Below are positions 20,607 through 42,613 of a stretch of 49,846 nucleotides of DNA, one piece after another. Numbering within the stretch: the first letter of the stretch is position 1; each line of letters opens with the position of its first letter. A program made the translations under genes and the position numbers. This stretch comes from an uncultured Nitrospiraceae bacterium (GTDB lineage: Bacteria; Nitrospirota; UBA9217), in contig CAZYEF010000002.1 in the NCBI GenBank assembly GCA_964646375.1, positions 1 to 49,846 of the forward strand. The letters run 5' to 3'. Below the pieces are notes generated by a model, which ran no database searches, was not told the DNA's origin, and saw nothing but the letters and a program-made list of their open reading frames with translations.

Positions 20607-20638
20607 AATAGTCTCCGTTCTGATAAATGTCTTCCTGA

Positions 20639-23680: not shown

Positions 23681-23722
23681 GGAATCCTCACTCGGTATTA
23701 ATAGTGCTGGTTTTTAGAACAA

Positions 23723-26744: not shown

Positions 26745-26808
26745 ATGGTTCTCCTTCATTGATTCCGGCTGGAAACAGGCGTCACGCGTCCCGGTTTTTT
26801 CTCCGCAA

Positions 26809-27573
26809 TCATCCAAACCTTCCGGTAATGTAGTCGTCAGTCTGTTTTTTATCGGGGTTCGTGAATATTTTTTCGGTGGTTCCGTATTCAATAAGTTCCC
26901 CCATGTAGAGAAATCCCGTCATGTCGGAAACCCGGGCCGCCTGCTGCATGTTGTGCGTCACAATAATGATCGAAACGTCCTTTTTGAGGGTCACGACGAG
27001 TTCTTCTATCTTTGCTGTTGAGATAGGGTCCAGTGCCGACGTCGGTTCATCAAAGAGCAGAACCTCCGGTTCAACGGCAAGGGCACGCGCGATCACCAGC
27101 CGCTGCTGCTGTCCTCCCGAGAGCTCATAGGCGCTTGCATTCATTTTGTCACGGACCTCATTCCAGAGAACGGCGTTTTTAAGAGCTTGTTCGATCCGTC
27201 CGGTAAGCTCCCCTTTGTTTTTGATGCCCTTCAGTTTAAGACCGTAAGCAATATTATCGGCGATGGACATGGGGAACGGCGTGGGTTTCTGAAAGACCAT
27301 GCCGATTCTGCTTCGGAGACTGATGAGATCGACATCACCTGACAGGATATTGTTTCCCTGAAACAGGATTTCTCCTTCATACCGGTGGTTGGGGTAGAGG
27401 TCGTGCATCCGGTTGAAACACCGGAGAAGTGTTGTTTTTCCGCACCCTGACGGGCCGATAAGCGCGGTGACATTGTTTTTGTAAATCGGCAGTGAAATAT
27501 TCTGAAGCGCACGGACGTCTATACTGTAGTAGAAATCCAGCTTCCTGACCTCGATTTCTATGGTCGAGTTCAC
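26809..27573 (-). CDS. pstB: Phosphate ABC transporter ATP-binding protein PstB
   Basis: Walker A is GPSGCGKTT, the signature is LSGGQQQRL, Walker B is [14 protein letters not shown] at 27573 follows GGAGG and overlaps the pstA stop by 1 nt. Confidence 0.95.
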
Positions 27574-28412
27574 TATTTGTACCTCCACTTGAGAAGAAGT
27601 CTGCCAAGGATCGTCACCACAAGAATGAAAAGGGTAATGACGAATGAGGCGGCCCATGCCTGTTTATGCCAGTCATCGTAGGGCCCCATGGCAAACTGGA
27701 AAATGGTAACCGTCAGCGATGCAATCGGGCGGTTCATGTCCAGGGAAAAGAAATTGTTATTAAATGAGGTAAAGAGCAACGGCGCCGTTTCACCGGCCAC
27801 CCGGGCAATGGAGAGCAATATGCCGGTCAGAATTCCTGTGGCCGCCCCCCGGTAGACAACCTGGATAATCACCTTGTAGTACGGTGCTCCCAGGGCGAAT
27901 GCGGCTTCCCGCAGGGTCCAGGGAACCATGGACAGCATGTCTTCCGTGGTTCTCAGGACCACCGGAATCATGATTACGGCAAGGGCTACCGCACCGGCCC
28001 ATCCGCTGAAATGCCCCAGCGATCTTACGAGCAATGCATAAATGAATGTGCCGACGACAATGGAAGGAACGCTTACGATAATATCCGCCAGTACGCTGAT
28101 GGTGCGGGCGTAGCGGGTCCGTTTTGCATATTCCGCGAGAAAGGTCCCTCCCAGGACGCCGAGCGGCACGCCGATCAGTGTTGCGAATACCGTGATCAAG
28201 AGCTGGCCGACGAAGGCATGTCTGAGGCCACCGCCTGTTTCACCGGGAGGAACGGGGTCGTGGATAAAAAGGCTGATATTGAGCGACCCGATGCCGTTTA
28301 TGATGACATCGCCCAGGATAAAAATGAGCCAGAACAAGCCGGTTATCGCCGCCAGTGAACTGAGTGCGAGGGCTATAAAGCCTTCTAGTTTGCGTTTTTT
28401 TTCTATGTCCAT
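27573..28412 (-). CDS. pstA: Phosphate ABC transporter permease PstA
   Basis: It is a six-TM permease with the EAA-like loop [11 protein letters not shown] and follows pstC. Confidence 0.9.
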
Positions 28413-28453
28413 AGCGTTCGAAAAAAAAGAATGCCCGATTCTGCCCGGCGTGT

Positions 28454-29395
28454 CTATCTTGAGTATTTCTTTTCCGCCTTGATCAGGAACAGTTTCGCTA
28501 TTGCCAGTGTGATAAAACTCAGTAAAAACAGCACCAGCGCAAGATAAAAAAGGGCTGATAGATAGATATCATTGTCTGCTTCCGTAAATTCATTTGCCAG
28601 GGTGACGGTAATGGTCGCAGCCGCATCGAAAAATGATGTGGCGATTTTATGGTTGTTGCCGAGAACGAAAGCCACGGCCATGGTCTCACCAAGCGCCCTG
28701 CCGAGAGAGAGCACCACCCCGCCGAACACGCCCAATTTGGAGTAGGGGAGTACGATGTTTTTTACCACTTCCCATTGGGTTGCGCCTACGGCATAGGCGG
28801 ATTCCTTTACCACCGATGGTGTGAGATTGAATGAATCTCTGGCAATGCTGGCGGTGAATGGTATGATCATGATGCTCAGGATGACGCTTGCGGTCAGGAT
28901 GTCAATGCCGAGTGGAGTGCCGCGGAACAGTATCTCGAGTACAGGAACCCGTCCGATGGTGTTTTGGAGTGCTGGTTCTATATATTTGCTCATGATCGGT
29001 GCCAGCGTGAAAAGACCCCACATGCCGTAAATAATGCTTGGAATAGCGGCGAGCAGCTCGATTGCGATGCCGATGGGGCCTTTCAGGACATTTGGTGCAA
29101 TTTCCGTAACGAAGATTGCAATGCCGATCGCGGTGGGTACCGCAATGAGGAGCGAAAGTGCCGTCGTGATGAAGGTGCCATAAATATTCGTGGCCGCGCC
29201 GAAACTTTCCTTGACGGGGTTCCAGTCAGTGGATGTCAAAAAATTTATAATGCCGAATTTTTTTATGGCCGGAGATGATTCTTGAATCAGTATCCAGAAA
29301 ATACCGAGTATGATTAAAACTACCGAAAGCGATGCAACGGCAGTAATAACTGAGAATGCAAAGTCCCAGGGATTTTTTTTAGGTATAATTGCCAA
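28454..29395 (-). CDS. pstC: Phosphate ABC transporter permease PstC
   Basis: It is polytopic with the EAA-like loop VKESAYAVGATQWE and lies between pstS and pstA. Confidence 0.9.
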   Translation of the reverse strand: MAIIPKKNPWDFAFSVITAVASLSVVLIILGIFWILIQESSPAIKKFGIINFLTSTDWNPVKESFGAATNIYGTFITTALSLLIAVPTAIGIAIFVTEIAPNVLKGPIGIAIELLAAIPSIIYGMWGLFTLAPIMSKYIEPALQNTIGRVPVLEILFRGTPLGIDILTASVILSIMIIPFTASIARDSFNLTPSVVKESAYAVGATQWEVVKNIVLPYSKLGVFGGVVLSLGRALGETMAVAFVLGNNHKIATSFFDAAATITVTLANEFTEADNDIYLSALFYLALVLFLLSFITLAIAKLFLIKAEKKYSR

Positions 29396-29524
29396 TGAAC
29401 CTGACTCCTGTAAAAAAAGTCTGCAACTTAAGGGCCTGTCTGATAAGTAAAAAAAGGGCCAGATAGTTGATTATAGCTATCTGACCCGAGAGAGTCAAAC
29501 AGGGCTGTATTTGCGCTGCCGGGT

Positions 29525-30547
29525 TTACTGAATGCCGTTTGCTTTCCAGTATGCCTTGACTTTCTCCTGCAACGGCTTCGGCAGCGGGATATAAATCAAT
29601 TTCTTTGCTGTCTGGTTGCCGTTCGTATATGCCCAGTCAAAGAATTTTGCGGTCTTCGCATTTGCGGCTTTTTTGTCTTTTGCCATAAGGATAAAGGTCG
29701 CTCCGGCGATGGGCCATGAATTTTTTCCCGGAGAATTGGTAAGCCAGACATAGAAATCCTTTGCGGGATCAAAATTACCCGAGGCGGCTGCGTCTTCAAA
29801 GGATTCAAAAGTAGGTTCAACAAATTTGCCGGCAGGATTCTTCAGCATTACATATACCAGATTGTTTTGTTTAGCATAGGCGAATTCCACGTAGCCGATG
29901 GAATTGTTCGTCTGTTTTACATAATTAGCCACGCCTTCATTGCCCTTGCCGCCGATGCCTACGGGCCATGACACCGATTTCCCTTCACCGACCTTGGTCT
30001 TCCAGTCTGCGGAGGATTCAGCAAGATAGTGGGTGAAGATCGCCGTCGTGCCTGAGCCGTCCGAACGGTGTACTACCGTAATGTCGCCAGATGACAGGTT
30101 CAGGCCGGGATTAAGCTTTTTAATCTGCGCATCATCCCATTTTTTGATATCGCCGAGAAAAATTTTTGCCAAGACGGTGGAATCCAGCTTTAACTGGCCT
30201 GACTTGACGCCTTTGATATTAATGACCGGGGTGATGCCGCCGACAACGGTTGGGAATTGAATCAGATTGTCTTTTTTCAGCTTTGTTGATTCCAGCGGGT
30301 CGTCTGAAGCCCCGAAGTCCACGGTCCGTTCGACAATCTGACGCTGTCCCGCGCCGGATCCGACGGACTGATAGTTAAGCTTGGTTCCTGTTACCTTGTT
30401 GTATTCATGTGCCCATGCTGAATAGAGGGGTGCGGGGAAGGATGCACCGGCGCCGTTTAACGTTTCTTCTGCATGTCCTATGGCTGTCATTAACATAAAC
30501 GTCACCAACATTACTGCACTTAAAGTCAATATTGCGATTTTTTTCAT
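29525..30547 (-). CDS. pstS: Periplasmic phosphate-binding protein PstS
   Basis: It has a signal peptide, then GAGASFPAPLY, YQSVGSGAG and RSDGSGTT, the phosphate-binding blocks. A GGAGGAG SD is present. Confidence 0.92.
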   Translation of the reverse strand: MKKIAILTLSAVMLVTFMLMTAIGHAEETLNGAGASFPAPLYSAWAHEYNKVTGTKLNYQSVGSGAGQRQIVERTVDFGASDDPLESTKLKKDNLIQFPTVVGGITPVINIKGVKSGQLKLDSTVLAKIFLGDIKKWDDAQIKKLNPGLNLSSGDITVVHRSDGSGTTAIFTHYLAESSADWKTKVGEGKSVSWPVGIGGKGNEGVANYVKQTNNSIGYVEFAYAKQNNLVYVMLKNPAGKFVEPTFESFEDAAASGNFDPAKDFYVWLTNSPGKNSWPIAGATFILMAKDKKAANAKTAKFFDWAYTNGNQTAKKLIYIPLPKPLQEKVKAYWKANGIQ

Positions 30548-30582: not shown

Positions 30583-30627
30583 ACCATACTATTGAATTGT
30601 TACAATTATGTTACAGTTCCATGACAA
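30583..30627 (-). promoter_or_regulatory. Pho-box-like promoter of pstS
   Basis: In gene orientation: TTGTCAT ggaa CTGTAAC ataa TTGTAAC, 10 nt, then TATGGT. The heptamers are at 30621-30627, 30610-30616 and 30599-30605, exactly 11 bp apart. Confidence 0.6.
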
Positions 30628-30707: not shown

Positions 30708-31109
30708 TCATGCACAGCAGAGATAGAGATTAATATTTTGCCGGAGATTAGCGATGTCTCCCTTGCAAATATATCCCTGAACTTTGCATGCAGAAACGAT
30801 TTCCCGCAGACTGCATTCATCATTTGAGGAATAAAAGACAATCGGAACGTGATTCGCCTCATGATTGGCACGCAGCATTGCTGCAAGCTTGTCGCCTGAT
30901 ACCCCAGGCATATTTATGTCGAGCAGCACCAGATCCGGCTTTAACTCCAGTATGCGATTGACCGCGCCGAACCCGTTATGATGAGTAATTACCTCAATCC
31001 CTTCGTTTTCTACCAGCTCCTTGACAATATCGAGATGCATTTCATCGTCATCAACTACGAATATCCTTTTTTTAGTCTGGTTCTCTTTTTCATGTAAAAT
31101 AACATTCAT
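30708..31109 (-). CDS. Stand-alone response-regulator receiver domain protein
   Basis: RIFVVDDDEMHL, DLVLLDINMPGVSG, FYSSN and YICKG. It has no output domain. ATG at 31109 follows GGAGGAA. Confidence 0.85.
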   Translation of the reverse strand: MNVILHEKENQTKKRIFVVDDDEMHLDIVKELVENEGIEVITHHNGFGAVNRILELKPDLVLLDINMPGVSGDKLAAMLRANHEANHVPIVFYSSNDECSLREIVSACKVQGYICKGDIANLRQNINLYLCCA

Positions 31110-31140
31110 GGCAGAATTTTTTCCTCCAAAACTATCCCGT

Positions 31141-31536
31141 TCACACCGGCAGAGAGGGTTCCGCATGCGGCTGCAGCAGGATGCATCTGACTTTGCTTTT
31201 CAGTTCTCCGATACACCCCTTACAGATATAACCTTTTGCTCCATACCGCGCGGCGTAATCACGCAGGCTGTCTTCATCATTTGATGAATAGAAAATGAAC
31301 GGTGAATCACGCCAACGGAGCAATTTTGCCAATTGATCGCCGGAAAGCCCCGGCATGTTGATGTCGAGCAGTATGAGGTCCGGACGCAGTTCTTTCACCA
31401 GAGTCGTTATACCTATCCCATGGTTGCTTTTATGTGTGCACACATACCATTGCTCGTCCTGCAGCAGTTCACTGGTCGTATAAAGATGCAGTTCGTCATC
31501 ATCAATTACCAGTATTTTCTTTTTGTTCCTGTCCAT
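31141..31536 (-). CDS. Stand-alone response-regulator receiver domain protein (paralogue of 30708..31109)
   Basis: KILVIDDDELHL, DLILLDINMPGLSG, FYSSNDEDSL and YICKG. It overlaps the 3' end of the upstream kinase gene by 35 nt. Confidence 0.85.
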   Translation of the reverse strand: MDRNKKKILVIDDDELHLYTTSELLQDEQWYVCTHKSNHGIGITTLVKELRPDLILLDINMPGLSGDQLAKLLRWRDSPFIFYSSNDEDSLRDYAARYGAKGYICKGCIGELKSKVRCILLQPHAEPSLPV

Positions 31537-32734
31537 GGAGAAATATTTCCCGCCTTTCCTTGTTTATGTGGATCGGGATTGAGAGTGAAAACGTCGTTCC
31601 CCTGCCGAACGTGCTTGATACGCCTATTGATCCTCCGAGGAGACCGGCCAGATTCCTGCTGATTGTCAATCCAAGTCCGGTCCCCTCGTATTGCTTGGTT
31701 TTGGCGTCTTCTACCTGAGTAAAGGCCGTGAACAGATTGGCAAGATGTTCTTCCTTGATTCCGATGCCTGTATCGGCTATCGAAATTTCCAGGATATTGT
31801 CTTTTCTGAGCAAGCCCATTGTAATAGTGCCGGCTTCAGTGAATTTGGCTGCATTGCTTGCAAGGTTCGTGATAATCTGCCGCAATTTAACCGGGTCGGA
31901 AATAATAGTAATAGATTCGGCACAGAGGGTAATCACGACATTGACCGGTTTGTTGCCGACAAGAATCCGGGTTGTTTGAGCGATTTCTGTTATAAGGGCC
32001 GAAACATCGACGGGCTGACATAATACGGTCATTTTCCCGGCTTCAATTTTCGACAAATCGAGAATGTTTGTGATTATTGTCCTGAGATTTGTCGCGCTGG
32101 TAATCATAAACGAGAGACGTTCCTTAATTTGTTCAATGGAATTCTTTTCTGCCGCCATGCGGAGCAATTCCGCAAGGCCAATGATGGCATTGACGGGCGA
32201 CCGAAGTTCATGGGTAACATTGGCCAGAAACTGCGATTTTATCAGGCTTATTTTTTCAAGCTCCTGCGCGCGCGCATTTGCTATTTCCTTTTGAAGTATG
32301 TTGCTCGCAAGTGCGTTGCTTTGCTGAATTACCAGTTGCTTGATGGATAAAAGACCCCGATAAATACCGTTGTTCTGTGTGACGATGATTTCATCGTAAA
32401 TATCCTGTGCCGGCCGTTCAAGGGCCATATCAATGGCCTCGCTGAGCGGGGTATTATCAGGCACAATAAGTGGGTTTGTTTCCGCCAGCGTGATGATGGA
32501 ATGCTTCCCATAGAGTTCAAAACCGAACCTTCGGAAAAGTGTGAAAAGCAGCTTTGTTCTTGTGATGAGCCCTCTCGGTCTTTTTTCTTCCACAAGTGCA
32601 ATTGCCTCCAGCTCAGTAGTGCTGAAAAAACGTTCTGCGACGCCGGTTACGCTCGTATGTGGTGATGTCTGTTCGCCGGATATAATAAGCTTTCCCACGG
32701 GAAGCATGTTGTCCAGAACGATTTCCGATTGCAT
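31502..32734 (-). CDS. Cytoplasmic histidine kinase with an N-terminal CBS-pair-like sensor
   Basis: The N-terminal ~140 aa has two CBS-like units (AIALVEEKRPRGLITRTKLL; IIVTQNNGIYRGLLSIKQLV). H-box is THELRSPVNAIIGLAELL, N-box is NLASNAAKFT, G-boxes are DTGIGI and GTGLGL. No TM segments. Confidence 0.85.
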   Translation of the reverse strand: MQSEIVLDNMLPVGKLIISGEQTSPHTSVTGVAERFFSTTELEAIALVEEKRPRGLITRTKLLFTLFRRFGFELYGKHSIITLAETNPLIVPDNTPLSEAIDMALERPAQDIYDEIIVTQNNGIYRGLLSIKQLVIQQSNALASNILQKEIANARAQELEKISLIKSQFLANVTHELRSPVNAIIGLAELLRMAAEKNSIEQIKERLSFMITSATNLRTIITNILDLSKIEAGKMTVLCQPVDVSALITEIAQTTRILVGNKPVNVVITLCAESITIISDPVKLRQIITNLASNAAKFTEAGTITMGLLRKDNILEISIADTGIGIKEEHLANLFTAFTQVEDAKTKQYEGTGLGLTISRNLAGLLGGSIGVSSTFGRGTTFSLSIPIHINKERREIFLHGQEQKENTGN

Positions 32735-32826: not shown

Positions 32827-33945
32827 CTATTTACCGATGACATTCCCGAGAAGGGGATATCGATTCTCGTTTCCTGTGCGGCAGATGACCGTTTCCTGAA
32901 GAAATGTCAGTATGAACGTGCTTCCGAAACCGGGGCTGCTTGTCACCGTAATTTTCCCGCCCATGGATTCTGTGAGAACTTTCACTATGTAGAGACCAAG
33001 CCCGGCACCTTTTACTGCCTCGCTTCCTCCGGCACGGTAAAACTTCTCGAAGATTCTCGGTATTTCATCTTTGGATATTCCGCAGCCTTCGTCACGCAGG
33101 GTGATGTTTGTATGATTATCAAATACTTCAAAGCAAGCCCAGATTTTTCCGCCTTCACGGTTATATTTTATGGCATTTGAGAAAATGTTTATCAGCACCT
33201 GACGGAGCGCCGTTTTATTTGCCAGGACCGTAGTTTTCATGCTTTCCACAATGTGTATCTCAATATGTTTTCTTGCTGCTTGATCGTAAAAAAAGTCAAC
33301 AACTTCCCTTGTTATCGCGACAATATCCACAGGCTCGACCGGCAGTGGTTGGCGGTTTTTTTCAAGCTGACTGAGCAATGAGGCGTCTTTTAACAGGCTT
33401 TCCGCATGCAAGGCAATAGTGTTGATCATTTTGAGGTGCCGCTGCTCACCATTTTTTCTGAGGGCAAGCGACGAGAATCCGCTGATGGTGGTCAGCGAGT
33501 TTCCCATTTCATGAATGAAATACCGCAGCGAAGTTTCTTTTTCACGTTCGCTCGATTGAAGGTTCTTCAAAATACTGCGGCGCTCCATCTGTTTTCGTAT
33601 CTTAAGCATTAATTCTGCGACGGAAAAAGGTTTTGACATGTAATCGTCCGCACCGAGAGTGAGGCCTGTTATGCGGTCTTTTTCATCGGAGAGCGCCGTC
33701 AGCATGATAATTGGAATGGACTTCCAGGCGATATTGTTTTTCACGATGCGGCATACTTCCCAGCCGTTCAGGCCCGGCATCATAACGTCGAGAAGCAGCA
33801 AATCAGGAGGGCGGTTCCGCATTGCTTCAATTGTTTCTTTACCGTTGCGGACAACCAGTGTTCTGTAATTTTCTCTTTCCAGATTGTACTGTATTAATTT
33901 CGACAGATCGTCTTCATCGTCGGCAATAAGGATAAATTCGTTCAT
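32827..33945 (-). CDS. Hybrid protein: N-terminal receiver domain fused to a HisKA/HATPase kinase core
   Basis: The receiver has ILIADDEDD, DLLLLDVMMPGLNG, IIMLTALSDEKDRITGLTLGADDYMSKPF (OmpR/PhoB-like receiver pattern). Then comes H-box FIHEMGNSLTTISGF, NIFSNAIKYN, DEGCGI and GAGLGL. AAGGAG SD is present. Confidence 0.85.
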   Translation of the reverse strand: MNEFILIADDEDDLSKLIQYNLERENYRTLVVRNGKETIEAMRNRPPDLLLLDVMMPGLNGWEVCRIVKNNIAWKSIPIIMLTALSDEKDRITGLTLGADDYMSKPFSVAELMLKIRKQMERRSILKNLQSSEREKETSLRYFIHEMGNSLTTISGFSSLALRKNGEQRHLKMINTIALHAESLLKDASLLSQLEKNRQPLPVEPVDIVAITREVVDFFYDQAARKHIEIHIVESMKTTVLANKTALRQVLINIFSNAIKYNREGGKIWACFEVFDNHTNITLRDEGCGISKDEIPRIFEKFYRAGGSEAVKGAGLGLYIVKVLTESMGGKITVTSSPGFGSTFILTFLQETVICRTGNENRYPLLGNVIGK

Positions 33946-33966: not shown

Positions 33967-34022
33967 ACTATCGCATGTCTTTATTACAGTATTGTTATGG
34001 TACTGTTAAATTTATGTTAAGC
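33967..34022 (-). promoter_or_regulatory. Pho-box-like promoter of the REC-HK hybrid gene
   Basis: In gene orientation: GCTTAAC, ATTTAAC, CCATAAC, CTGTAAT at 34016-34022, 34005-34011, 33994-34000 and 33983-33989 (11-bp phasing). Then 10 nt, then GATAGT; TAGTAT lies 2 nt further. Confidence 0.45.
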
Positions 34023-34272: not shown

Positions 34273-35115
34273 TCAACGATACTCCGGACTCGACGGATGG
34301 TCTGTATATTCGACGGGCAGTTCCACTTCAGCTATGGTTCCTTCACCAAATTTGCTCGAAATTATCATGGCGCCGTCCAAAGTCTTTAAATGCTTCTGGA
34401 CCATTTTAATGCCTGATAGCGGCGTTTTGGATCGTCGTCCGGTTTGTTTCAACCGTGCCGGCTCGGATTGTGTGAGCAGTGTTTTAATTTGTTCTGCTGT
34501 CATGCCGATACCGGTATCGGTAATAGTAAAACGGATTCGGTTCTTATCTTTATAAAGAATGATGGCAACTCTGCCATGGTTCGTATATTTGGCGGCATTG
34601 GCGCAGAGTTCTGTAACAATCTGCTTGATTGTAAAACGGTTCGAAAAAACAAACACCGGGCACGGTTAGGAAATATACGTGACTTTTACAGGTTTACTTC
34701 TTACCTGCAGTTGTATTCTTTGAACTATTTCCTGTAACAGCGCGTCGATGTCGAAAATACAATATTCAAAGGCATCTGTGGCTGGCTCCGGATTATTTGA
34801 GTTAACAAGAATTGACAGGGCTTCAGCAAAGTTTGTTGTCTTTATCTTGAGAAGAGCGAACCTGCGCTCAAGGCTTTCAATGTCTTTGGTTACATACGCT
34901 TCTCTCATCAGGTCCCCTACGGCGAGGATTTCATATAGAAAATATCCCAGGTCCCTGGTGGCATCATGAAGTAAAGGGACTTTTTTAAAATCTGAGTATT
35001 TCGACGTCTGGTTATTTGCTTTTAACGATTCAGCTGTTTGAGCAAAATGGAGCAACATGTTTTTATGCGCAGGAATTTTCCCCGAGGCAAGAGACTGTCC
35101 TTGTTCTGTAATCAT
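34273..35115 (-). pseudogene. Histidine-kinase-like (GHKL ATPase) gene interrupted by a single in-frame TAA
   Basis: ORFs 34666..35115 and 34273..34656 are in the same frame. Read-through gives ...KPVKVTYIS*PCPVFVFSNRFTIKQIVTELCANAAKYT. The TAA at 34668-34666 falls just before the N-box. DTGIGM is present and the G2 region is degenerate. GGAGGG SD lies before 35115. Confidence 0.6.
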
Positions 35116-35165: not shown

Positions 35166-37019
35166 TTAGGCACACGGTGCCAAAAGCTTATTGCTCATTG
35201 TTTCATGATAGGTGGTAAATTTTAACGCTCCTTCTTTGCCAAAATACCGTTCTCGCATTTTAGGATCTGTTTGCATTAAATCAACAATGATCAGACCGTC
35301 AAGCACGTAACCAAATGCCGGGTCCACATTAAATCCGACGATGCGTCCTCCGAGCTTAAGATATTGCTTTAAAAGGATCGGAATGCCTTTCCGGTCTTCT
35401 TCGATGCAGGATATCAGGTTGGAACAATCATCGGAATCGTCCTTTAGCATGCGCACAATGCCATCAGTGTCCCATTTTCGCATGCCTTTTGAACGAAATG
35501 GTTTTTTCGGCTGGACGAATTCGGCAAGATCGGTCTGGTATCGGTTTGCTGTCAGATAATCGACCATGAGCTGCTTTGACAATGGTTGATATTCACGAGT
35601 GATGCTTACCGGGCCGAACAGCGTTCTATAGTGCGGATGCGCGACCAGGAATTGCGCAATTCCCTTCCAGAGCAGCAGAAGAGGAGTATAGGATTTTTGA
35701 TATTCAGGACGTACAAATGAGCGCCCCAATTCCAGCGCCGGTCCCATGTGTTCCAGAAAACCGGATTTATAATGGAAGAGTGTGCTGGTGTAAAGACCTT
35801 GAAGCCCCTGTGTATTGACAAGTTCATCTGTTTTGCCGAGACGATAGGCACCTACTACCTCACGGGTCTCCCGGTTCCATATAAAAAGATGAACATAGGT
35901 TGCATCGTATCGGTCTCTATCCAGCGATTTTCCCGTTCCTTCACCCACGGCACGGAATGTTTTTTCCCGTAAGCGGCAGATTTCAGTCAGAAGGCAGGGA
36001 ATTTGATGACCTTTGGCATAAAAAACCATGAGGTTGCCGTTCTCAATTAAAAGCTGGTCGGCCGGCAACAGGCTGATTTCATCGGCCATGCGGCTTGGAT
36101 TCTGAGCAGGTATGATTGGTTTTTCGTTTTTAGTTTTTATGATAGGTAGCAACGGTGATGTATTTTCCTTCCTGGTGTGATTATTTCTTAACTCGAGAAG
36201 ATACGTACGGAGCCTGAGATATCTGGTTACATCATCGTCCCCGTCGAATTCGTTTAATTTTTCTACGGGAATCAATTCTCCTACACGTACCTGTATTTTT
36301 TTATGCTTTTTATTAAAAAGTTCATTTGGCAGCATGGCGGTCCGCAGCAGCGGATGTACCATTCCCGCTACATGGAATGCTGCGCTGTTTGTTCCGCGAA
36401 AGAAGACCGGGAGCACTGGGGTTGATGTGATTTTGCTGATGCGGGCAATGCTTGTGCTCCAGTCCGGGTCGGTGATTGCGCCTTTTTGGACATTGAAATG
36501 TGAAACTTCTCCGGCTGGAAATACGACCAGCATTCCGCCTTTTTTCAACCATTGAATGCATTCTCTGACAGGTCTGATATTGTCCCTGATTGATGTGACA
36601 GTATTGAAAGGATTTACGGAAATCAGCAGATCACGCATTTCCGGAATGTATTTCAGGAGATAATTTGCTATGAACTTCACGTCGCTTCGTACCGATCGGA
36701 GAAGAGTTGCAAGGATGATGCCTTCAATACCGCCGAAAGGGTGGTTCGCGACAACAAGAACGGGACCTTTCTGGAAATTGATCCGTTTTCGATCTGTTTC
36801 AGTAATGTCATAAGACACATTGAGTCGTTCAAGGGCTTTTTCAGGGAAAGAACGATCGTCTTTCATCGTGGTAATATCAGCATATGTCCGATTCAAGCGC
36901 GGAAACGCCAGAAAATGTTCCAAGGGGCCTTTTACCAGTGAAAAAAGCTTGTTTTGCAGTGGATCCTTAAAATCGAGAGACAGGTTGAAAATTCGATTTG
37001 GCTGGTTCTGCTGCAGCAT
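35166..37019 (-). CDS. Bifunctional acyltransferase, OlsF-like: N-terminal PlsC-type O-acyltransferase plus C-terminal OlsB/GNAT-type N-acyltransferase (aminolipid synthase candidate)
   Basis: The N-domain has VVANHPFGGIEG and FPAGEVS. The C-domain has LREKTFRAVGEGTGKSLDRDRYD..HLFIWN....VVGAYRL, typical of OlsB-like N-acyltransferases. This domain order matches what I recall for OlsF. Confidence 0.65.
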   Translation of the reverse strand: MLQQNQPNRIFNLSLDFKDPLQNKLFSLVKGPLEHFLAFPRLNRTYADITTMKDDRSFPEKALERLNVSYDITETDRKRINFQKGPVLVVANHPFGGIEGIILATLLRSVRSDVKFIANYLLKYIPEMRDLLISVNPFNTVTSIRDNIRPVRECIQWLKKGGMLVVFPAGEVSHFNVQKGAITDPDWSTSIARISKITSTPVLPVFFRGTNSAAFHVAGMVHPLLRTAMLPNELFNKKHKKIQVRVGELIPVEKLNEFDGDDDVTRYLRLRTYLLELRNNHTRKENTSPLLPIIKTKNEKPIIPAQNPSRMADEISLLPADQLLIENGNLMVFYAKGHQIPCLLTEICRLREKTFRAVGEGTGKSLDRDRYDATYVHLFIWNRETREVVGAYRLGKTDELVNTQGLQGLYTSTLFHYKSGFLEHMGPALELGRSFVRPEYQKSYTPLLLLWKGIAQFLVAHPHYRTLFGPVSITREYQPLSKQLMVDYLTANRYQTDLAEFVQPKKPFRSKGMRKWDTDGIVRMLKDDSDDCSNLISCIEEDRKGIPILLKQYLKLGGRIVGFNVDPAFGYVLDGLIIVDLMQTDPKMRERYFGKEGALKFTTYHETMSNKLLAPCA

Positions 37020-37088
37020 AGGTCGCTCCTTTTATTCAAAAGTAATATTTAAAAGCACAACATAGTTTCAAAGGACAAGGTCTTGTAC

Positions 37089-38330
37089 TTATGCAAAACG
37101 TTCTCGTATGACGTTTGTGATTCGGTATCTCCATGACCAGATTCCGGTTTCCGGGCAAGGCATCAGCCGTGAATCTTTGCCGATATGGTAACGGTTTCCA
37201 CGCCACGCCACTGTTGAACTCAGAATAGGCACGAACCAGATGCCGCCTATTATTAAATCCTTTACAGGACTCAGGAAGTAAGTAAACAGTGATTGTCTAT
37301 GCAAGTCCTTCTTGACGGCAGACATAGCAATAATTTTTCCAGTCAATGAATCAGTAAAAATTTTCATTAATCCGATACCGCCTGCAAATGACAGCGTTGT
37401 GCTTGATGGACCGTTGAAAATAACCGGCAGGACCGAAATAAATACAGGATTGGAGAGAAGCTCGGAAATATACTTATAACCGCCGATTTTCCATCTGAGT
37501 TTTCCCCATCTCGTGTGACGGTTCAGGAATCGTTTGATGTCCCAGTATTCATTAACATTGGTGATCAGATAATTTGACAAAACCACCCGTTTGCCTATGC
37601 GGGCCATTTCTCTGCCGATAATATAATCTTCCGCCAGAATATCTTTGAATGCGCCAAATCCACCGAGTTTTTCGAGGTCTGTTTTGCTCATGAGCATTGA
37701 TTTGCCGATAACACACGGCATCCGCAAAAACCGATCGAGAAAACTGACGCTGCCGATGATAAAGGAGTTCAGATGAAGATTTTCCAGAAGCGCGCCGATG
37801 CTGCGGCCGCCGGTTCCGTGGATCATATTGCTTACAAGGCCAACCGACGAATCACGCGTGTGTTTTGCAATTTCCCGGAGATAGTTTTTATCTACCATGA
37901 CATTACTGTCGCTGATGAGGATGTGTGAATGGCGGGAAGCTCTGTACGCCGGGATAAGGTTGTTTACTTTCGGGTTGAGTCCTGTATTACACTTTTCGAC
38001 GACAATTCTGATTTTTTTGTCCGCATATTTGTCCTTGATTTTTGCCACCACTTTATATGCTGGATCATTGCGGTCCTGAAGCGCAAAGACGACTTCATAT
38101 TCGGAATAGTCTTGAGTGCAGAAACTGGCAAGGTTGTCAAAAAGATTGTCGTCAAGTCCTTTGAGCGGTTTCAATATGGAAATGGGCGGAAGGGATTTCA
38201 GGTCATTTTGCGAAGGGAGATCGGCGGGTCTGCGCTGTCTTTTGAGAAGCGCATATACAGCCGCCGTCTGAAGCAGGCAAAGCAGAATGCCCACTATTGA
38301 AATTATTGCGCAGATGTGGAATAAGGTCAT
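37089..38330 (-). CDS. GT21-type (ceramide glucosyltransferase-like) membrane glycosyltransferase, a candidate diacylglycerol glycosyltransferase
   Basis: It has an N-terminal TM, ISILKPLKGLDDNL, ISDSNV, AEDY and RHTRWGKLRW (the (Q/R)xxRW motif). ATG at 38330 follows GGAGG. The longer 456-aa ORF would overlap the PHP gene. Confidence 0.8.
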   Translation of the reverse strand: MTLFHICAIISIVGILLCLLQTAAVYALLKRQRRPADLPSQNDLKSLPPISILKPLKGLDDNLFDNLASFCTQDYSEYEVVFALQDRNDPAYKVVAKIKDKYADKKIRIVVEKCNTGLNPKVNNLIPAYRASRHSHILISDSNVMVDKNYLREIAKHTRDSSVGLVSNMIHGTGGRSIGALLENLHLNSFIIGSVSFLDRFLRMPCVIGKSMLMSKTDLEKLGGFGAFKDILAEDYIIGREMARIGKRVVLSNYLITNVNEYWDIKRFLNRHTRWGKLRWKIGGYKYISELLSNPVFISVLPVIFNGPSSTTLSFAGGIGLMKIFTDSLTGKIIAMSAVKKDLHRQSLFTYFLSPVKDLIIGGIWFVPILSSTVAWRGNRYHIGKDSRLMPCPETGIWSWRYRITNVIRERFA

Positions 38331-38380
38331 GGTATGCCTCCATCGGATATGTTGTAGGGAATAAAATGAGCTTTCATCAG

Positions 38381-39073
38381 TCAATTCCTGAAGAGTGTGA
38401 TCGCCACACCCCTGTTGTGTTTGATGCAGTTTTTGACGCAGTCTACAGTTTTTTCGCAATTGAGCAGCGTTTTCCAGGAGTAGAGATGATGCGGTTTATG
38501 AAAATCGCTGTTGGCGACGTAGGGATATTTTTTCAGACTGATTACGTTAAATACATCATCCCGGTTGGCTATTTCCCATGCGTCTATGTATTTGGCATAT
38601 TTATCTCTGTTGTTCCAGAGAAAGAGGGTATCCTGGGTAGTGGGGTCAGGAGTGTGATGAGGGTGGCAAGCAACGATCAGGGCATTCTGTTTGCGCGCTT
38701 CTATGAAAATTTCTTCGCAATTCAAGCAGGCGGGAATGAATTCCTTTATATCAAGCACTAGGAAGTGGGCTGATTCATCTTCTGATAAGTAATTTTTACT
38801 TATTTCCACACCCGGGACCACCAGCATCCCGTATTTGTTCATGGCCCGTTCTGCTTCTTCACGGATGGCAAGAAGATATTCGTTGAAGTTGTCCCGTTTC
38901 ACGGAAAGATTAAACTTTTGCGCAAACTTTCCGATTACATTGTCACCGTTCACCACGTGGTCCGTAATGGCAATGACATCAAAGCCCGCTTGTCCAAAGA
39001 GATCAATCGTTTTTCTCATTTCCACCGACCCGTCGGAGTAGGTGGTGTGAATATGAAAATCACACAGTATCAT
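38381..39073 (-). CDS. PHP-domain metal-dependent phosphoesterase
   Basis: MILCDFHIHTTYSDGS, AITDHV, ...HFLVL..., ACHPHH and NSDFH give the His/Asp metal-ligand pattern of PHP domains. Confidence 0.85.
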   Translation of the reverse strand: MILCDFHIHTTYSDGSVEMRKTIDLFGQAGFDVIAITDHVVNGDNVIGKFAQKFNLSVKRDNFNEYLLAIREEAERAMNKYGMLVVPGVEISKNYLSEDESAHFLVLDIKEFIPACLNCEEIFIEARKQNALIVACHPHHTPDPTTQDTLFLWNNRDKYAKYIDAWEIANRDDVFNVISLKKYPYVANSDFHKPHHLYSWKTLLNCEKTVDCVKNCIKHNRGVAITLFRN

Positions 39074-39081
39074 TGTGTTCG

Positions 39082-39126
39082 AATATACGCTTTTAATATT
39101 ACGGGCAGATTACGGGCAGATTAAAT
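39082..39126 (-). promoter_or_regulatory. Perfect 11-bp tandem repeat forming a Pho-box-like internal promoter ahead of the PHP gene
   Basis: On the plus strand: ATTACGGGCAG ATTACGGGCAG ATTA (39098-39123). In gene orientation: ATTTAAT, CCGTAAT, CCGTAAT, 10 nt, TATATT (39087-39082), then 8 nt to the ATG at 39073. Confidence 0.45.
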
Positions 39127-39131
39127 TCCTG

Positions 39132-40418
39132 TTACAATTGTGACCGGCTGTGAATAAGGTAGGAATAGTACGCAGCGGCGCTTGTTGGATGGCGCTGAAG
39201 TGTTTTGAAATCCACGCGATACAGGCCGAACCGGGTGTCAAGTCCGTTGAGCCATTCGTAATTATCAATTAACGTCCAATAGTAATATCCCCGTATGTCA
39301 AGACCGTTTTTCAGACATCGCTCCACCATGTCGACGTGCCGTTTCATATATTTCACTTTTTCCTCGGAATCATGTGTCGCAATACCGTTTTCAGTGATAA
39401 TCAGCGGTACCTGAAGGCGGGAAGCATACCTGAGGACTTTTTCAATTCCACGCGGATGAATTTCCCAACCAATATTCGTAAGTCCGTGACCGTCTATGTC
39501 ATGATGCCGGAGTTCGACTCCCATTCTTTTGAACGGGTTGAAACGAAGATGAATGCGGGTATAGTAGTTCACGCCGAAAAAATCGAGTTTGCCTTTTATC
39601 GGTACTTCGATTTCAATTGGACGGGAGAAGGGGAACTTGATGACAAATATTCCGGTTTTGAAGGCATCTATGATCGAATGATTATAGAAAAAGTTTGCCG
39701 TTTTTTTGAGAACCCGGTCCAGTGGATTCCATTTTTTCCAGGGAGCAAAAACGGACATATTATGAGACAAGCTTACCTGGGCGCCCGGGACATGCTCATG
39801 GATGATATCATACGCTTTTCCATGACAGGTAAAAATATTTTTCAAAGCGTGAAGAGATTTTGGCACATCCTGGATTCCCGGGGGCGTGCAGCCCTCTAGG
39901 TAGCCGCCCAGCAGAATAACGTACGGCTCGTTGAATGTTATCCAATAACGCACATCCCTGAGCGTTGTAACCATTTTCTCCGCAAAACGCAGAAATTTTT
40001 CCACAGATGCCCTTCGGTGCCAGGGAGATCGACCGATTAACCAGGATGGATTTGTAAAATGATGCAGTGTCACCATAGGCTCGATATTGTAGCTTCGGAG
40101 AATATTGATGATGTCCTGATAGTGTGCAATGGCATCCTCGTTCCAAACACCTTCCTGCGGCTGAATTCTGCTCCACTCTATGGAGAAGCGACAACTGTTG
40201 ACGCCCAATTCCTTCAGCAGATGCAGGTCCTGACGATAGCGATTGTAATGGTCCGTTATGTCCGGAGTCTCTTCAATCTCGGGGTCCCAGGTCGTCCAGT
40301 CCGCGTGCGGTGAACCTTCTATCTGAAATGCTGACGTGGCAATTCCCCATTGGAAGTCAGATGGGAAAACGTTTTTTGCCTCTCCGCGAACCGTGCTCTT
40401 TTCCGATGTTATCTCCAA
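39132..40418 (-). CDS. Glycoside hydrolase family 1 (beta-glucosidase-like), cytoplasmic
   Basis: FQWGIATSAFQIEG, the acid/base motif ITFNEPYV and the nucleophile motif IITENGIA are present. There is no signal peptide. It has a TTG start and no SD. Confidence 0.9.
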   Translation of the reverse strand: MEITSEKSTVRGEAKNVFPSDFQWGIATSAFQIEGSPHADWTTWDPEIEETPDITDHYNRYRQDLHLLKELGVNSCRFSIEWSRIQPQEGVWNEDAIAHYQDIINILRSYNIEPMVTLHHFTNPSWLIGRSPWHRRASVEKFLRFAEKMVTTLRDVRYWITFNEPYVILLGGYLEGCTPPGIQDVPKSLHALKNIFTCHGKAYDIIHEHVPGAQVSLSHNMSVFAPWKKWNPLDRVLKKTANFFYNHSIIDAFKTGIFVIKFPFSRPIEIEVPIKGKLDFFGVNYYTRIHLRFNPFKRMGVELRHHDIDGHGLTNIGWEIHPRGIEKVLRYASRLQVPLIITENGIATHDSEEKVKYMKRHVDMVERCLKNGLDIRGYYYWTLIDNYEWLNGLDTRFGLYRVDFKTLQRHPTSAAAYYSYLIHSRSQL

Positions 40419-40525
40419 TAAAGCACCATGACAAGCAGTCCCAGTAACGCAATTGCGAACAAGACTGTTTCTTCGTATTTATTTGCTGATTTTCCATCAA
40501 TATTATTATTCATCCTGTTATCCAT
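40409..40525 (-). CDS. Possible 34-38 aa single-TM small protein translationally coupled between psiE and the GH1 gene
   Basis: It reads MDNRMNNNIDGKSANKYEETVLFAIALLGLLVMVLYWR*. Its ATG at 40525 lies 1 nt after the psiE TGA (TGATATG). Its TAA (40411-40409) overlaps the GH1 TTG start (TTGGAGATAA). It is below the ORF-track size cutoff. Confidence 0.3.
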   Translation of the reverse strand: MDNRMNNNIDGKSANKYEETVLFAIALLGLLVMVLYWR

Positions 40526-40526
40526 A

Positions 40527-40949
40527 TCATTTCTGTCCTGATTCCAGATATTTTTTTGGTGAAAAAACTACTGCCAGCGTTCTGAGACATCCTATCACCA
40601 GTATCAGCGCGGAGAGAGCGAAAATCATTGGGGTCTGCAGTGTGTGCTCATAAAGGCCGACCATAACTTCTCTCAGCACAAATACCAGTGCGGCATCGGT
40701 AATAAAGGTTATTTTTAAGCGGTGCACGCTGAAATATTCTATGATGCTTCTCAGGAGTTCTATGACGATAAACATGGAAAGAATGTTCGTTACCATCATG
40801 TCAAATGCCGCTCCGATGCTCTGACTCCCAAAAACTGCGCGCAAATCAAGCACTAGTCGCGCAATTCCCATTAGCAAGGCAAGAACCACCAGAGGGATCA
40901 GCAGTTTGATCATATTGTCGACAATTTTCCCGAAATAATCTAAAATCAA
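40527..40949 (-). CDS. psiE: Phosphate-starvation-inducible protein PsiE family (4-TM membrane protein)
   Basis: The size, TM pattern and the IVIELLRSIIEYF...ITDAALVFVLREV region fit PsiE. I place the start at TTG 40949, which follows AGGAG plus 5 nt. The ORF-track start at 40991 has no SD and would lie upstream of the predicted -10. Confidence 0.8.
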   Translation of the reverse strand: MILDYFGKIVDNMIKLLIPLVVLALLMGIARLVLDLRAVFGSQSIGAAFDMMVTNILSMFIVIELLRSIIEYFSVHRLKITFITDAALVFVLREVMVGLYEHTLQTPMIFALSALILVIGCLRTLAVVFSPKKYLESGQK

Positions 40950-40979: not shown

Positions 40980-41024
40980 ATATTGATACAAGGTTATTAC
41001 GGGAACATTACAGTCGTGTTAAAA
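40980..41024 (-). promoter_or_regulatory. Pho-box-like promoter of the psiE operon
   Basis: In gene orientation: TTTTAAC, CTGTAAT, CCGTAAT at 41018-41024, 41007-41013 and 40996-41002. Then 10 nt, then CAATAT (40985-40980). Confidence 0.5.
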
Positions 41025-41226: not shown

Positions 41227-41271
41227 TTGTAACAAATTTTTAATTGTACCGTAACATATCTCTACTACAAT
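41227..41271 (+). promoter_or_regulatory. Pho-box-like promoter of the divergent kinase-family gene
   Basis: TTGTAAC (41227-41233), TTTTAAT (41238-41244), CCGTAAC (41249-41255), 10 nt, then TACAAT (41266-41271). Confidence 0.45.
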
Positions 41272-41374: not shown

Positions 41375-41959
41375 GTGAACCAATTAGGCAGAAAACTATA
41401 CCATCTTCTGGGCGGTTTGGCCCTCGTCTCGCTCTATTATGTTATCGGCAGAGATCGTGCGCTTTTGTTTTACGCGGCATTGTTTGTTGTCGTCCTGATT
41501 CTGGACCTTATTCGTCTCAAACTACCGCCGGTCAACCGGTTTATTCATGACAGATTTCAGAATTTTATCCGGGTAAGTGAAAAACGTAAGATTACCGGCA
41601 CAGCTTCCTATATTTTGGGAATTGGACTGTCTTTTTACTTCTACCGTTCGGATATCGCCACGCTGGCAGTTTGTTTTCTTGCTTTTGGTGATGTTGCTGC
41701 TACTACAGTTGGCGAGAGATATGGTAAAACAAAAATTGGAAAGAAAAGTTTAGAAGGAAGCATCGCTTTTGTCGCAGCCGCAATATCGGGAGGGATGCTG
41801 CTCTCGCTGGCGGGCATACCTGTCATGTATGGACTTGTCGTAACTGGTGCGTTGATTGCCGCGGGAGTGGAACTGATACCACTTCCGGTGAACGATAACC
41901 TGTTAATACCCCTTATATCAGGAGGCGCGATGTCCTTGATTCTCATGATAATTGGGTAA
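41375..41959 (+). CDS. CTP-dependent polyprenol/phytol/diacylglycerol kinase-family membrane protein (dolichol-kinase-like, CTP_transf_1 superfamily)
   Basis: It is polytopic. FGDVAATTVGERYGKTKIGKKSLEGSIAFV matches the GD..A..VG..(F/Y)G...KS.EGS motif of this family. It has a GTG start and no clear SD. Confidence 0.72.
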   Translation: MNQLGRKLYHLLGGLALVSLYYVIGRDRALLFYAALFVVVLILDLIRLKLPPVNRFIHDRFQNFIRVSEKRKITGTASYILGIGLSFYFYRSDIATLAVCFLAFGDVAATTVGERYGKTKIGKKSLEGSIAFVAAAISGGMLLSLAGIPVMYGLVVTGALIAAGVELIPLPVNDNLLIPLISGGAMSLILMIIG

Positions 41960-42214: not shown

Positions 42215-42613
42215 ATGAAACGCCTTATTTTGTGTATACTGACAACCGCCCTGCTTATCTCAAGCCCCGCATTCCTGCCGTCCGGATACGCCAATGAGCA
42301 GCAATCGATGTCGCAGGACATAACAGCGAAAAGAAAGCAATTTGAGAAAAGCATGAAGGATCGGCTGAACCGACTGGGCGTTCAATTGGAAGAGCTGAAA
42401 GTAAAGGCAGCCGCCATGAAGGAAAGGGCGAACAAGGACCTGAACAAACATCTCGCAGAAGCTGAAAAGAAGCAAAAAATTGCATCACAAAAATTTGAAA
42501 AGGTGCAGAAAGAATCAGAAAAAAAATGGCAAAAGCTTTCAACCGAACTAGACAAAGCAGCGGATGATTTTGAAAAAGCTTTCGAAAAGGCTAAAACACA
42601 TTTTAAAGATTGA
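42215..42613 (+). CDS. Secreted Lys/Glu-rich coiled-coil protein, function unknown
   Basis: GGAGGGGGAGG SD. The signal peptide is MKRLILCILTTALLISSPAFLPSGYA. The rest is a heptad-like charged helix. Confidence 0.7.
   Translation: MKRLILCILTTALLISSPAFLPSGYANEQQSMSQDITAKRKQFEKSMKDRLNRLGVQLEELKVKAAAMKERANKDLNKHLAEAEKKQKIASQKFEKVQKESEKKWQKLSTELDKAADDFEKAFEKAKTHFKD

Follow-up and report, generated by a model that had tools for sequence, protein, structure and literature searches.

A conserved GH1-PHP-GT21 gene trio under Pho boxes in Thermodesulfovibrionia, a candidate module for phosphate-sparing lipid remodelling

We analyzed a 49,846-nucleotide (nt) stretch of DNA (hereafter the window) from an uncultured bacterium that its homologues place in the class Thermodesulfovibrionia (Nitrospirota), and focused on six minus-strand genes that lie head to tail between positions 35166 and 40949. 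In the direction of transcription, these genes are psiE, a gene for a 38-amino-acid (aa) peptide, and genes for a GH1 glycosidase, a PHP phosphoesterase, a GT21 glycosyltransferase, and an OlsF-like protein (Table 1). An earlier reading of this DNA (the original prediction) had proposed that these genes are an operon behind a Pho-box-like promoter and that they replace phospholipids under phosphate limitation. All evidence in our analysis is computational, i.e., sequence and comparative genomics, with family calls made by Pfam at its own gathering thresholds and by NCBIfam at its equivalog cutoffs. All six domains that had been assigned by eye pass the Pfam thresholds. The claimed co-directional arrangement, with tight spacing and overlaps, was likewise confirmed: from psiE to the OlsF-like gene, the gaps are 1, -10 (an overlap), 58, 50, and 69 nt. 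An alternative TTG start for GT21 at 38459, which would overlap PHP by 79 nt, was ruled out, as alignments of homologues begin at the ATG at 38330.

To look for phosphate control, we scanned the window for the Pho-box pattern YKTAAY-N5-YKTAAY, i.e., hexamers at an 11-bp period. The scan returned nine matches, where 0.21 would be expected by chance, and the count stayed below nine in all 100 shuffled sequences. Every match is intergenic, and together they fall at five promoters, each oriented to its downstream gene: psiE, PHP, a receiver-kinase hybrid gene, pstS, and a membrane-protein gene divergent from psiE. The five arrays are built alike, with three or four hexamers, a 10-nt spacer, and a -10-like hexamer that resembles TAnnnT. 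An array of hexamers followed by a spacer and a -10 element is the layout of PhoB-dependent promoters in Escherichia coli. The promoter signal is thus stronger than had been claimed. A single operon headed by one Pho box was not borne out, since a second array lies between GH1 and PHP; because PHP-GT21-OlsF is preceded by its own array, the cluster comprises at least two Pho-box units. The Pho-regulated same-strand block also reaches past position 35166, down to phoU at 26052. The Pho-regulon reading, in which the region is predicted to be part of a phosphate-starvation island in the chromosome, is strongly supported.

The promoter layout also bears on where translation starts. The opening of the psiE open reading frame (ORF) at 40991 was ruled out as the start, as the predicted -10 element lies downstream of it. 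At PHP, the -10 element is only 8 nt from the ATG and no Shine-Dalgarno sequence precedes that ATG, so a leaderless or near-leaderless transcript is predicted; the PHP message is probably leaderless, with the transcription start placed from the sequence. This layout, with the -10 element close to the ATG, is common to 20 orthologous loci.

To determine which members of the cluster are conserved, we scanned a genome collection with a GH1 alignment and obtained 80 loci, one per species, with GH1 identities of 61-89% and nearly all from Nitrospirota (locus handles below begin with L). The presence of the trio was scored by tblastn with the window proteins. GH1, PHP, and GT21 occur together in 58 of the 80 loci, and most loci without the full trio end at contig ends. 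PHP and GT21 are direct neighbors in nearly every case, separated by a median of about 12 nt; the gap from GH1 to PHP has its mode at 57-58 nt, which corresponds to the Pho-box promoter spacer. Clustering of the neighboring ORFs gave a usual order of PhoB-like regulator, kinase, GH1, PHP, GT21, a few variable genes, and pstSCAB-phoU. Because the trio is kept in so many species-level genomes, GH1 is not a chance neighbor; the original prediction had named, as one finding that would overturn it, a generic GH1 gene co-located only in this genome, and the synteny search found the co-location in many genomes. On these comparisons, we predict that GH1-PHP-GT21 is the conserved core, with OlsF and PsiE as lineage-specific additions, and that this trio is a previously undescribed conserved module.

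Phosphate control of the module is seen in the relatives too. Motif density in the 80 loci is 0.27 per kb, compared with about 0.004 per kb by chance, and the motif precedes 13 of 16 pstS genes (81%), 44 of 59 PHP genes (75%), and 40% of psiE genes. GH1 genes that have neither psiE nor phoB ahead of them often carry an array of their own. In two Thermodesulfovibrio metagenome-assembled genomes (MAGs), GH1 is divergent from PHP-GT21, and in one of these two (L082) the shared GH1/PHP spacer carries Pho boxes facing both ways. The regulator upstream of GH1 in many relatives has PhoB as its best NCBIfam match (266-282 bits; cutoff 296), and one neighboring kinase passes the cutoff for the phosphate sensor PnpS (406.6 versus 400). 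Control by phosphate starvation, as originally proposed, is hence supported by the arrays at five promoters including that of pstS, by the same-strand pstSCAB-phoU genes, and by these PhoB/PhoR-like genes. Other genes that recur nearby encode alkaline phosphatase, a porin, an extra PstS, arsenate reductase, and a methylglyoxal-synthase-like protein. In one sub-lineage, an efflux-pump insertion moves PHP-GT21-OlsF about 7 kb away, and in L083 a CBS-kinase and regulator pair is located between GH1 and PHP. No sugar transporter or sugar kinase genes were found among the recurrent neighbor families, in which most ORFs are unannotated; one sub-lineage has a 4-alpha-glucanotransferase gene (MalQ) upstream of GH1.

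As read in its sequence, the GT21 protein is hydrophobic near both termini and carries an RHTRW motif, and its only relatives in the PDB are ceramide glucosyltransferases (E 3e-39). Its best NCBIfam match, over the full length, is HpnI (253.7 bits; cutoff 310). An HpnI (hopanoid) identity was rejected on this score and on the lack of hpn partner genes: the annotated part of the window and the recurrent neighbor families include no HpnJ, HpnK, or other hopanoid genes. By homology, the protein is predicted to be an integral-membrane lipid glycosyltransferase of the ceramide-glucosyltransferase/Pgt/HpnI family.

The OlsF-like protein carries Acyltransf_2 at residues 62-276 and Acetyltransf_5 at residues 350-451, the domain order of OlsF, and it matches NF052615 with 422.6 bits over model positions 25-569 of 570; the GlsB and GlsA models also match. 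Because the score stays below the cutoff of 620, we labelled the protein OlsF-like, without a named head-group amino acid. It is a predicted bifunctional aminolipid synthase, with an N-terminal O-acyltransferase and a C-terminal GNAT N-acyltransferase. An exact-sequence look-up with this protein returned only two short contigs. The fused gene was found only in 13 related loci, all close relatives. In lineages without it, a split pair of genes, one OlsB-like (181 bits) and one OlsA-like (151 bits), takes the same place, and such pairs stand beside the trio in L036, L043, L057, L062, L064, L072, and L029; the pair lies between GH1 and PHP in L036 and after GT21 in another locus. In our view, this independent recruitment of aminolipid genes is the strongest argument for a role of the trio in membrane lipids. 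A flippase-like LPG_synthase_TM gene, not present in the window, follows OlsF in seven loci (L010, L012-L015, L061, and L074) and precedes PHP in L088; its product may move new lipids across the membrane. The proposed role in phosphorus-free lipids is therefore supported by GT21, by the full-length OlsF-like protein, and by the split OlsB/OlsA genes recruited independently at the same spot. Homology and context lend good support to the predicted lipid roles of GT21 and OlsF, and the bacterium very probably makes phosphorus-free membrane lipids.

The closest structural match of the PHP protein is TM0559 of Thermotoga maritima, a hypothetical protein (PDB 2ANU; E 3e-61, 43% identity in the alignment). 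Nine residues at the metal-ligand positions predicted for PHP (H7, H9, D14, H39, E90, H103, H137, D190, and H192) do not vary across 21 diverse members. No signal peptide was read in the sequence, in keeping with a cytoplasmic protein. Against characterized PHP enzymes (HisJ, nucleoside bisphosphate phosphatase, RNase AM, and cyclic phosphodiesterase), it scored 20-29 bits versus cutoffs of 90-500, and these matches are mostly limited to the N-terminal 40-odd residues, which hold the metal motif. No Metallophos (calcineurin-like) match was obtained in the Pfam, NCBIfam, or PDB comparisons. The fold is thus that of PHP, and the description of the phosphoesterase as a PHP-domain protein, not a calcineurin-like PlcP, stands; a PlcP-like function would be an analogy. 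We infer that PHP is a metal phosphoesterase of the cytoplasm, presumably trinuclear like other PHP enzymes, and that it frees phosphate from an intracellular pool of phosphoesters. Its tight coupling to GT21 in Nitrospirota suggests that the substrate is a phospholipid or phosphatidate, whose dephosphorylation would supply the acceptor for GT21. On balance, a lipid substrate, with PlcP-like acceptor release, and a soluble phosphate-salvage ester appear about equally likely.

The GH1 protein matches its Pfam model across positions 2-450 of 453, and the glutamates of its NEP and ENG motifs (E164 and E343), described earlier as intact, are indeed invariant in 17 homologues. Neither a signal peptide nor an N-terminal hydrophobic anchor is visible in the sequence. 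Among PDB entries, the strongest match over the full length is to BGPh from Pyrococcus horikoshii (1vff; 274.7 bits over residues 18-424); natural single-domain beta-glucosidases reach at most 220 bits and mostly about 185-210, and a reconstructed ancestral glycosidase scores 260.8 bits. The score of 303.6 against the NCBIfam BGL model is below its cutoff of 478.5. A 6-phospho-beta-glycosidase was rejected, with those models scoring 101-222 versus cutoffs of 561-686; the C-terminal NYEW motif is one that we take to mark the non-phospho type. An exact-sequence look-up gave no record. GH1 is hence a predicted cytoplasmic retaining beta-glycosidase of the short, BGPh-like type. GT21 enzymes invert and so make beta-glycosides, and a beta-glycosidase fits such products; we therefore favor the idea that GH1 acts on the GT21 product, by hydrolysis or by transfer. 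The original prediction knew of no assigned role for a GH1 enzyme in this pathway, whereas glycolipid precedents exist in plant SFR2 (PMC11525325) and in BGPh (PMC4687101).

Of the first two genes of the cluster, psiE is restricted to close relatives. The psiE product is a predicted homologue of the PsiE family of phosphate-starvation-inducible inner-membrane proteins, passing the Pfam threshold and scoring 24 bits with the NCBIfam PsiE model (cutoff 138); psiE lies upstream of GH1 in 15 loci. A tblastn search placed the 38-aa peptide, which has no family match, behind PsiE in 15 loci (E<=0.003, with two weaker matches), and the peptide ends in ...AGLLxMVLYW(R/K). In related loci, it always follows psiE, even where psiE is away from GH1 (L026). 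From this pairing, the peptide looks like a PsiE partner protein.

Taken together, we suggest that the region is a Pho island in which GT21 and OlsF carry out phosphate-sparing lipid remodelling, with PHP and GH1 as putative partners, and we give this reading a probability of roughly 0.6. When phosphate is scarce, a PhoB-type regulator would be expected to bind the arrays of three or four YKTAAY hexamers, 11 bp apart, which would replace the -35 element of at least five promoters. The units so controlled would be psiE-peptide-GH1, PHP-GT21-OlsF, the response-regulator/kinase gene, pstSCAB-phoU, and the divergent membrane-protein gene, and the PHP-GT21-OlsF transcript probably runs on into the kinase-like gene that follows. 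The PHP-GT21-OlsF unit would provide phosphorus-free membrane lipids. As an inverting enzyme, GT21 would use a UDP-sugar to attach a hexose to a lipid alcohol of the membrane (candidates are diacylglycerol, dialkylglycerol, and ceramide) and so form a beta-glycolipid, and the OlsF-like protein would N-acylate and then O-acylate an amino acid to give an ornithine-type aminolipid. PHP may dephosphorylate a phospholipid or phosphatidate to supply the GT21 acceptor, a soluble substrate being roughly as likely. GH1 would act at the membrane periphery as a beta-glycosidase or transglycosidase on the GT21 beta-glycolipid, in trimming, in elongation by sugar disproportionation as in plant SFR2, or in turnover. 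The lipid roles of these last two enzymes are drawn from gene context and from their families.

Several observations weigh against this reading. First, OlsF, HpnI, BGL, and PsiE all score under their NCBIfam equivalog cutoffs, so that any exact substrate would be a tentative assignment. Second, a strict Pho-box match lies directly upstream of only 8% of GH1 genes, and 37 of 66 evaluable loci have no traceable Pho box upstream of GH1 (by the strict pattern and rough gene calls). Third, a calcineurin-type phosphoesterase, a 238-aa protein of the YfcE family, accompanies the trio in about 11 loci. Its gene comes right behind GT21 in three of these (L024, L028, and L031), is one gene away in L081 and L082, and lies elsewhere in the neighborhood in six further loci. 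In those loci, it could be an alternative diacylglycerol-releasing enzyme. Fourth, the TM0559 family is spread across many bacterial and archaeal phyla and also occurs in other gene contexts. Distant members are lone genes in Thermotoga, Aquifex, an Omnitrophota MAG, and one other genome. In a WOR-3 bacterium (L093, 5648-13438, and L096), the PHP gene is part of pstS-MGS-PHP-pstCAB-phoU-phoBR, where it adjoins the methylglyoxal-synthase-like gene (MGS), and in a Thermodesulfobacteriota MAG (L091, 1-6717) it follows pstCABS and a glycogen phosphorylase gene with a 4-nt overlap. We also scanned metagenomes with PHP members from outside Nitrospirota and obtained 51 loci of at least 5 kb; in about one-third, PHP is accompanied by pst or phoBR genes, whereas GT21, GH1, and OlsF occur in none. 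Because the family sits in pst/phoBR operons of other phyla without GT21, its role would be independent of a glycosyltransferase, and we conclude that it is a predicted recurrent Pho-regulon phosphoesterase across phyla. The suggestion that PHP is a new type of phospholipase C is weakened by this occurrence of the family without GT21, GH1, or OlsF. As an observation in its own right, the placement of PHP in pst operons outside Nitrospirota hints at a general phosphate-recycling role.

These observations feed the alternative that survives best, in which GT21 and OlsF make phosphorus-free lipids, while PHP serves soluble phosphate salvage as a general phosphatase or diesterase of the cytoplasm and GH1 hydrolyses a soluble beta-glucoside, the four sharing only the Pho regulon. 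Candidate PHP substrates would be released head groups (phosphoethanolamine or glycerol-3-phosphate, for example), nucleotides, pAp, sugar phosphates, or pyrophosphate. The pst operons of WOR-3 and Thermodesulfobacteriota, the metagenomic loci, and the rarity of a Pho box directly at GH1 are all in its favor. In addition, small soluble phosphoesters are the substrates of the characterized enzymes to which PHP shows weak matches (histidinol phosphatase, nucleoside bisphosphate phosphatase, and cyclic phosphodiesterase). However, membership of one regulon alone does not explain the fixed GH1-PHP-GT21 order. In Nitrospirota, PHP and GT21 are nearly always joined behind one Pho-box promoter, and GH1 stays beside them across the whole range of sequence divergence sampled. 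Moreover, the recurrent neighbors, as far as they are annotated, lack the sugar transporter and kinase genes of a catabolic locus, and the nearest characterized relative of GH1 prefers lipid-like aglycones (PMC4687101). We regard this alternative as possible, if doubtful.

A bolder version of the lipid-remodelling reading would make GH1-PHP-GT21 a self-contained phospholipid-to-glycolipid machine, with PHP as a phospholipase C or phosphatidate phosphatase, GT21 adding the first beta-hexose, and GH1 as the counterpart of SFR2, the whole being the source of the glycosyl diether and ceramide lipids that are ascribed to Thermodesulfovibrionia where subsurface and serpentinite systems are short of phosphate. 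Monoglycosyl diether and monoglycosyl ceramide lipids track this class in phosphate-poor serpentinite fluids, which also favors the main lipid-remodelling reading, and sphingolipid synthesis potential is reported for Thermodesulfovibrio (PMC10667739). We put this version forward tentatively, as unlikely to hold in full.

The same lipid data lend something to a further alternative, a module for glycosphingolipids or other non-glycerolipids, in which GT21 would be a ceramide glucosyltransferase, GH1 a glucosylceramidase-type enzyme, and the trio part of a sphingolipid head-group cycle. Among GH1 enzymes, animal GBA3 has glucosylceramidase-type activity. The ceramide glucosyltransferases that are the only PDB relatives of GT21, and its full-length match to HpnI, point the same way, and Pgt also accepts ceramide (PMC3972451). 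Against this, no recognizable sphingolipid or hopanoid biosynthesis gene lies in the window or among the recurrent neighbors, and the characterized Pho-regulated bacterial GT21 prefers diacylglycerol (PMC3972451). A glycosphingolipid module is accordingly quite unlikely, and the variant with an HpnI-like hopanoid acceptor is weaker again, given the score under the HpnI cutoff and HpnJ/HpnK not being recognizable among the annotated genes. Finally, a coincidence, i.e., a generic sugar-catabolic GH1 gene amid chance AT-rich repeats, could point to MalQ in one sub-lineage and to the beta-glucosidase-type scores of GH1, but it is effectively refuted by the motif count against shuffles, by the motif kept upstream of PHP and pstS in dozens of species, by the conserved trio, and by the lack of sugar uptake or kinase genes among annotated neighbors.

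The surroundings of the cluster are summarized in Table 1. Downstream lie signalling genes and the phosphate transporter genes. In the kinase-like gene directly after the OlsF-like gene, about 280 aa long, the in-frame TAA leaves two pieces, one of 149 aa and a HATPase piece of 127 aa. L003 has an unbroken orthologue that encodes Ser where the window has the stop. The TAA is either a nonsense mutation or an assembly error. On the other side, the 194-aa membrane protein divergent from psiE gave no significant Pfam, NCBIfam, or PDB match and is kept at 81-82% in L003 and L004; by eye, its stretch GERYGKTKIGKKSLEGS recalls CTP-dependent polyprenol/diacylglycerol kinases, a resemblance that is unverified and not relied on here. 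Just past this gene, a secreted coiled-coil protein of the sll1863 stress-response family is encoded at 42215-42613 on the plus strand. Beyond phoU and in the same orientation, a complete arn-like operon, of the kind that attaches aminoarabinose to lipid A, spans 18574-25788, and the motif scan of the window gave no Pho-box match ahead of it. The rest of the window is ordinary chromosome, including MutL, MiaA, and a TctABC transporter, and no RNA families were found in the window with Rfam.

Table 1. Coordinates of the gene cluster, the Pho-box arrays, and neighboring genes in the window
Feature	Position	Strand	Details
psiE	40527-40949	minus	Pfam PsiE 41.3 bits (threshold 23.9); TTG start at 40949 with AGGAGA ribosome-binding site
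38-aa single-helix membrane peptide	40409-40525	minus	MDNRMNNNIDGKSANKYEETVLFAIALLGLLVMVLYWR; read from sequence; 10-nt overlap with GH1 start
GH1, 428 aa	39132-40418	minus	Pfam Glyco_hydro_1 303 bits (threshold 22.6); TTG start
PHP, 230 aa	38381-39073	minus	Pfam PHP 32.5 bits (threshold 26.4)
GT21, 413 aa	37089-38330	minus	Pfam Glyco_transf_21 149.5 bits (threshold 21.7)
OlsF-like	35166-37019	minus	Pfam Acyltransf_2 69.6 bits (threshold 27); Acetyltransf_5 93 bits (threshold 22.4)
Pho-box array of psiE	40996-41023	minus	TTTAAC / TGTAAT / CGTAAT; 10-nt spacer; -10-like CAATAT at 40980-40985
Pho-box array of PHP	39098-39136	minus	TGTAAC / TTTAAT / CGTAAT / CGTAAT; GH1 stop codon within first hexamer
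Spacer and -10 element of PHP	39074-39097	minus	10-nt spacer; TATATT at 39082-39087; 8 nt to ATG
Pho-box array of receiver-kinase hybrid	33983-34021	minus	CTTAAC / TTTAAC / CATAAC / TGTAAT; 10-nt spacer; GATAGT
Pho-box array of pstS	30599-30626	minus	TGTCAT / TGTAAC / TGTAAC; 10-nt spacer; TATGGT
Pho-box array of divergent membrane-protein gene	41228-41255	plus	TGTAAC / TTTAAT / CGTAAC; 10-nt spacer; TACAAT
194-aa polytopic membrane protein	41375-41959	plus	divergent from psiE; Pho-box headed
Kinase-like gene	34273-35115	minus	helical N-terminus and HATPase_c; in-frame TAA at 34666-34668
Receiver-kinase hybrid	32827-33945	minus	Pho-box array ahead
CBS-domain histidine kinase	31502-32734	minus	signalling gene
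Response regulators, two	31141-31536 and 30708-31166	minus	signalling genes
pstS-pstC-pstA-pstB-phoU	26052-30547	minus	Pfam PBP_like_2, BPD_transp_1 twice, ABC_tran, PhoU
ArnT	24085-25788	minus	arn-like operon
ArnB	22505-23680	minus	arn-like operon
ArnC	21567-22508	minus	arn-like operon
Formyltransferase	20639-21586	minus	arn-like operon
Dehydrogenase	19566-20837	minus	arn-like operon
Deacetylase	18574-19551	minus	arn-like operon

Replacement of phospholipids by sugar- and amino-acid-lipids is a major microbial strategy against phosphate scarcity, with enzymes known mainly from Proteobacteria. The window points to another enzyme set, GT21, PHP, and GH1 under Pho boxes, in an anaerobic, mostly uncultured, and environmentally widespread class of Nitrospirota. 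What is new is the conserved GH1-PHP-GT21 module, the host phylum, a Pho-box consensus and promoter layout defined here for Thermodesulfovibrionia, and a first functional context for the TM0559 family, which has a solved structure and no known function, as a candidate cross-phylum Pho-regulon phosphoesterase. If the lipid-remodelling reading is true, the trio would be a candidate source of glycolipid biomarkers in phosphate-poor subsurface fluids, and a prokaryotic GH1 enzyme remodelling membrane glycolipids would, as far as the searched papers show, be new in prokaryotes.

Each member of the cluster can be set beside a known relative or analogue. TM0559 itself stands alone in the Thermotoga maritima genome, beside ferritin and CorA genes, and compared with it the Nitrospirota clade has a four-residue insertion after a conserved glutamate and lacks the N-terminal extension. 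By title, TM0559 reportedly features only in a function-prediction study and in a Pol III PHP-domain study. A full-text search of the literature found no paper that ties a PHP domain to lipid remodelling.

BGPh, the archaeal relative of the bacterial GH1 studied here, is a membrane-associated enzyme (PDB 1VFF) that prefers long-alkyl-chain glucosides, and its relatives hydrolyse steryl glucosides (PMC4687101). Both proteins have a short chain of about 420 aa and both catalytic glutamates, and membrane binding is known for BGPh alone. We know of no description of the natural substrate or genomic partners of BGPh. Plant SFR2 is a GH1 galactolipid:galactolipid galactosyltransferase that converts monoglycosyl lipid to oligoglycosyl lipid and diacylglycerol (PMC11525325). 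The likeness, a GH1 enzyme on membrane beta-glycolipids during stress, is a functional analogy only: SFR2 sits in the outer envelope membrane of the chloroplast, and its transferase activity depends on additional loops (Loop A) together with a hydrophobic patch and a membrane anchor.

OlsF is known from Serratia, Vibrio cholerae (VC0489), and Desulfovibrio alaskensis (Dde_3661) (PMC12971839, PMC5193443), and was verified under phosphate limitation in D. alaskensis G20 (PMC5193443). The protein in the window shares its two-domain order, a full-length model match, and a Pho box upstream of the operon; here, the GH1-PHP-GT21 core has gained OlsF only in a particular lineage. The taxa given for OlsF in a 2026 review of ornithine lipids (PMC12971839) do not include Nitrospirota, and a paper on sulfate-reducer lipidomes names none of the enzymes discussed here (PMC11181052).

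Pgt of Agrobacterium tumefaciens and Mesorhizobium loti is a processive GT21 enzyme with a Pho box in its promoter; under phosphate deprivation, it makes beta-linked glycolipids, including di-hexosyl diacylglycerols, preferring diacylglycerol and also accepting ceramide (PMC3972451). The GT21 family and the Pho box are common to Pgt and the protein described here, and processivity is shown for Pgt. To our knowledge, Pgt has no adjacent PHP or GH1 partner. More broadly, PlcP, Agt or Pgt, and OlsBA or OlsF are the established components of PhoB-controlled, phosphate-sparing lipid remodelling (PMC4796936, PMC3972451, PMC12971839, PMC5193443); its plcP-agt form, which phosphate scarcity induces for the replacement of phospholipids, is found in SAR11, roseobacters, Sinorhizobium, and Pseudomonas (PMC4796936, PMC8528852). 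As in that system, a Pho box precedes a phosphoesterase gene that has a gene for a lipid glycosyltransferase directly after it. The likeness lies in the genes: a calcineurin-like PlcP and a GT4 enzyme there, whereas here a PHP fold, a GT21 enzyme, and a conserved GH1 glycosidase come together in an anaerobic Nitrospirota host.

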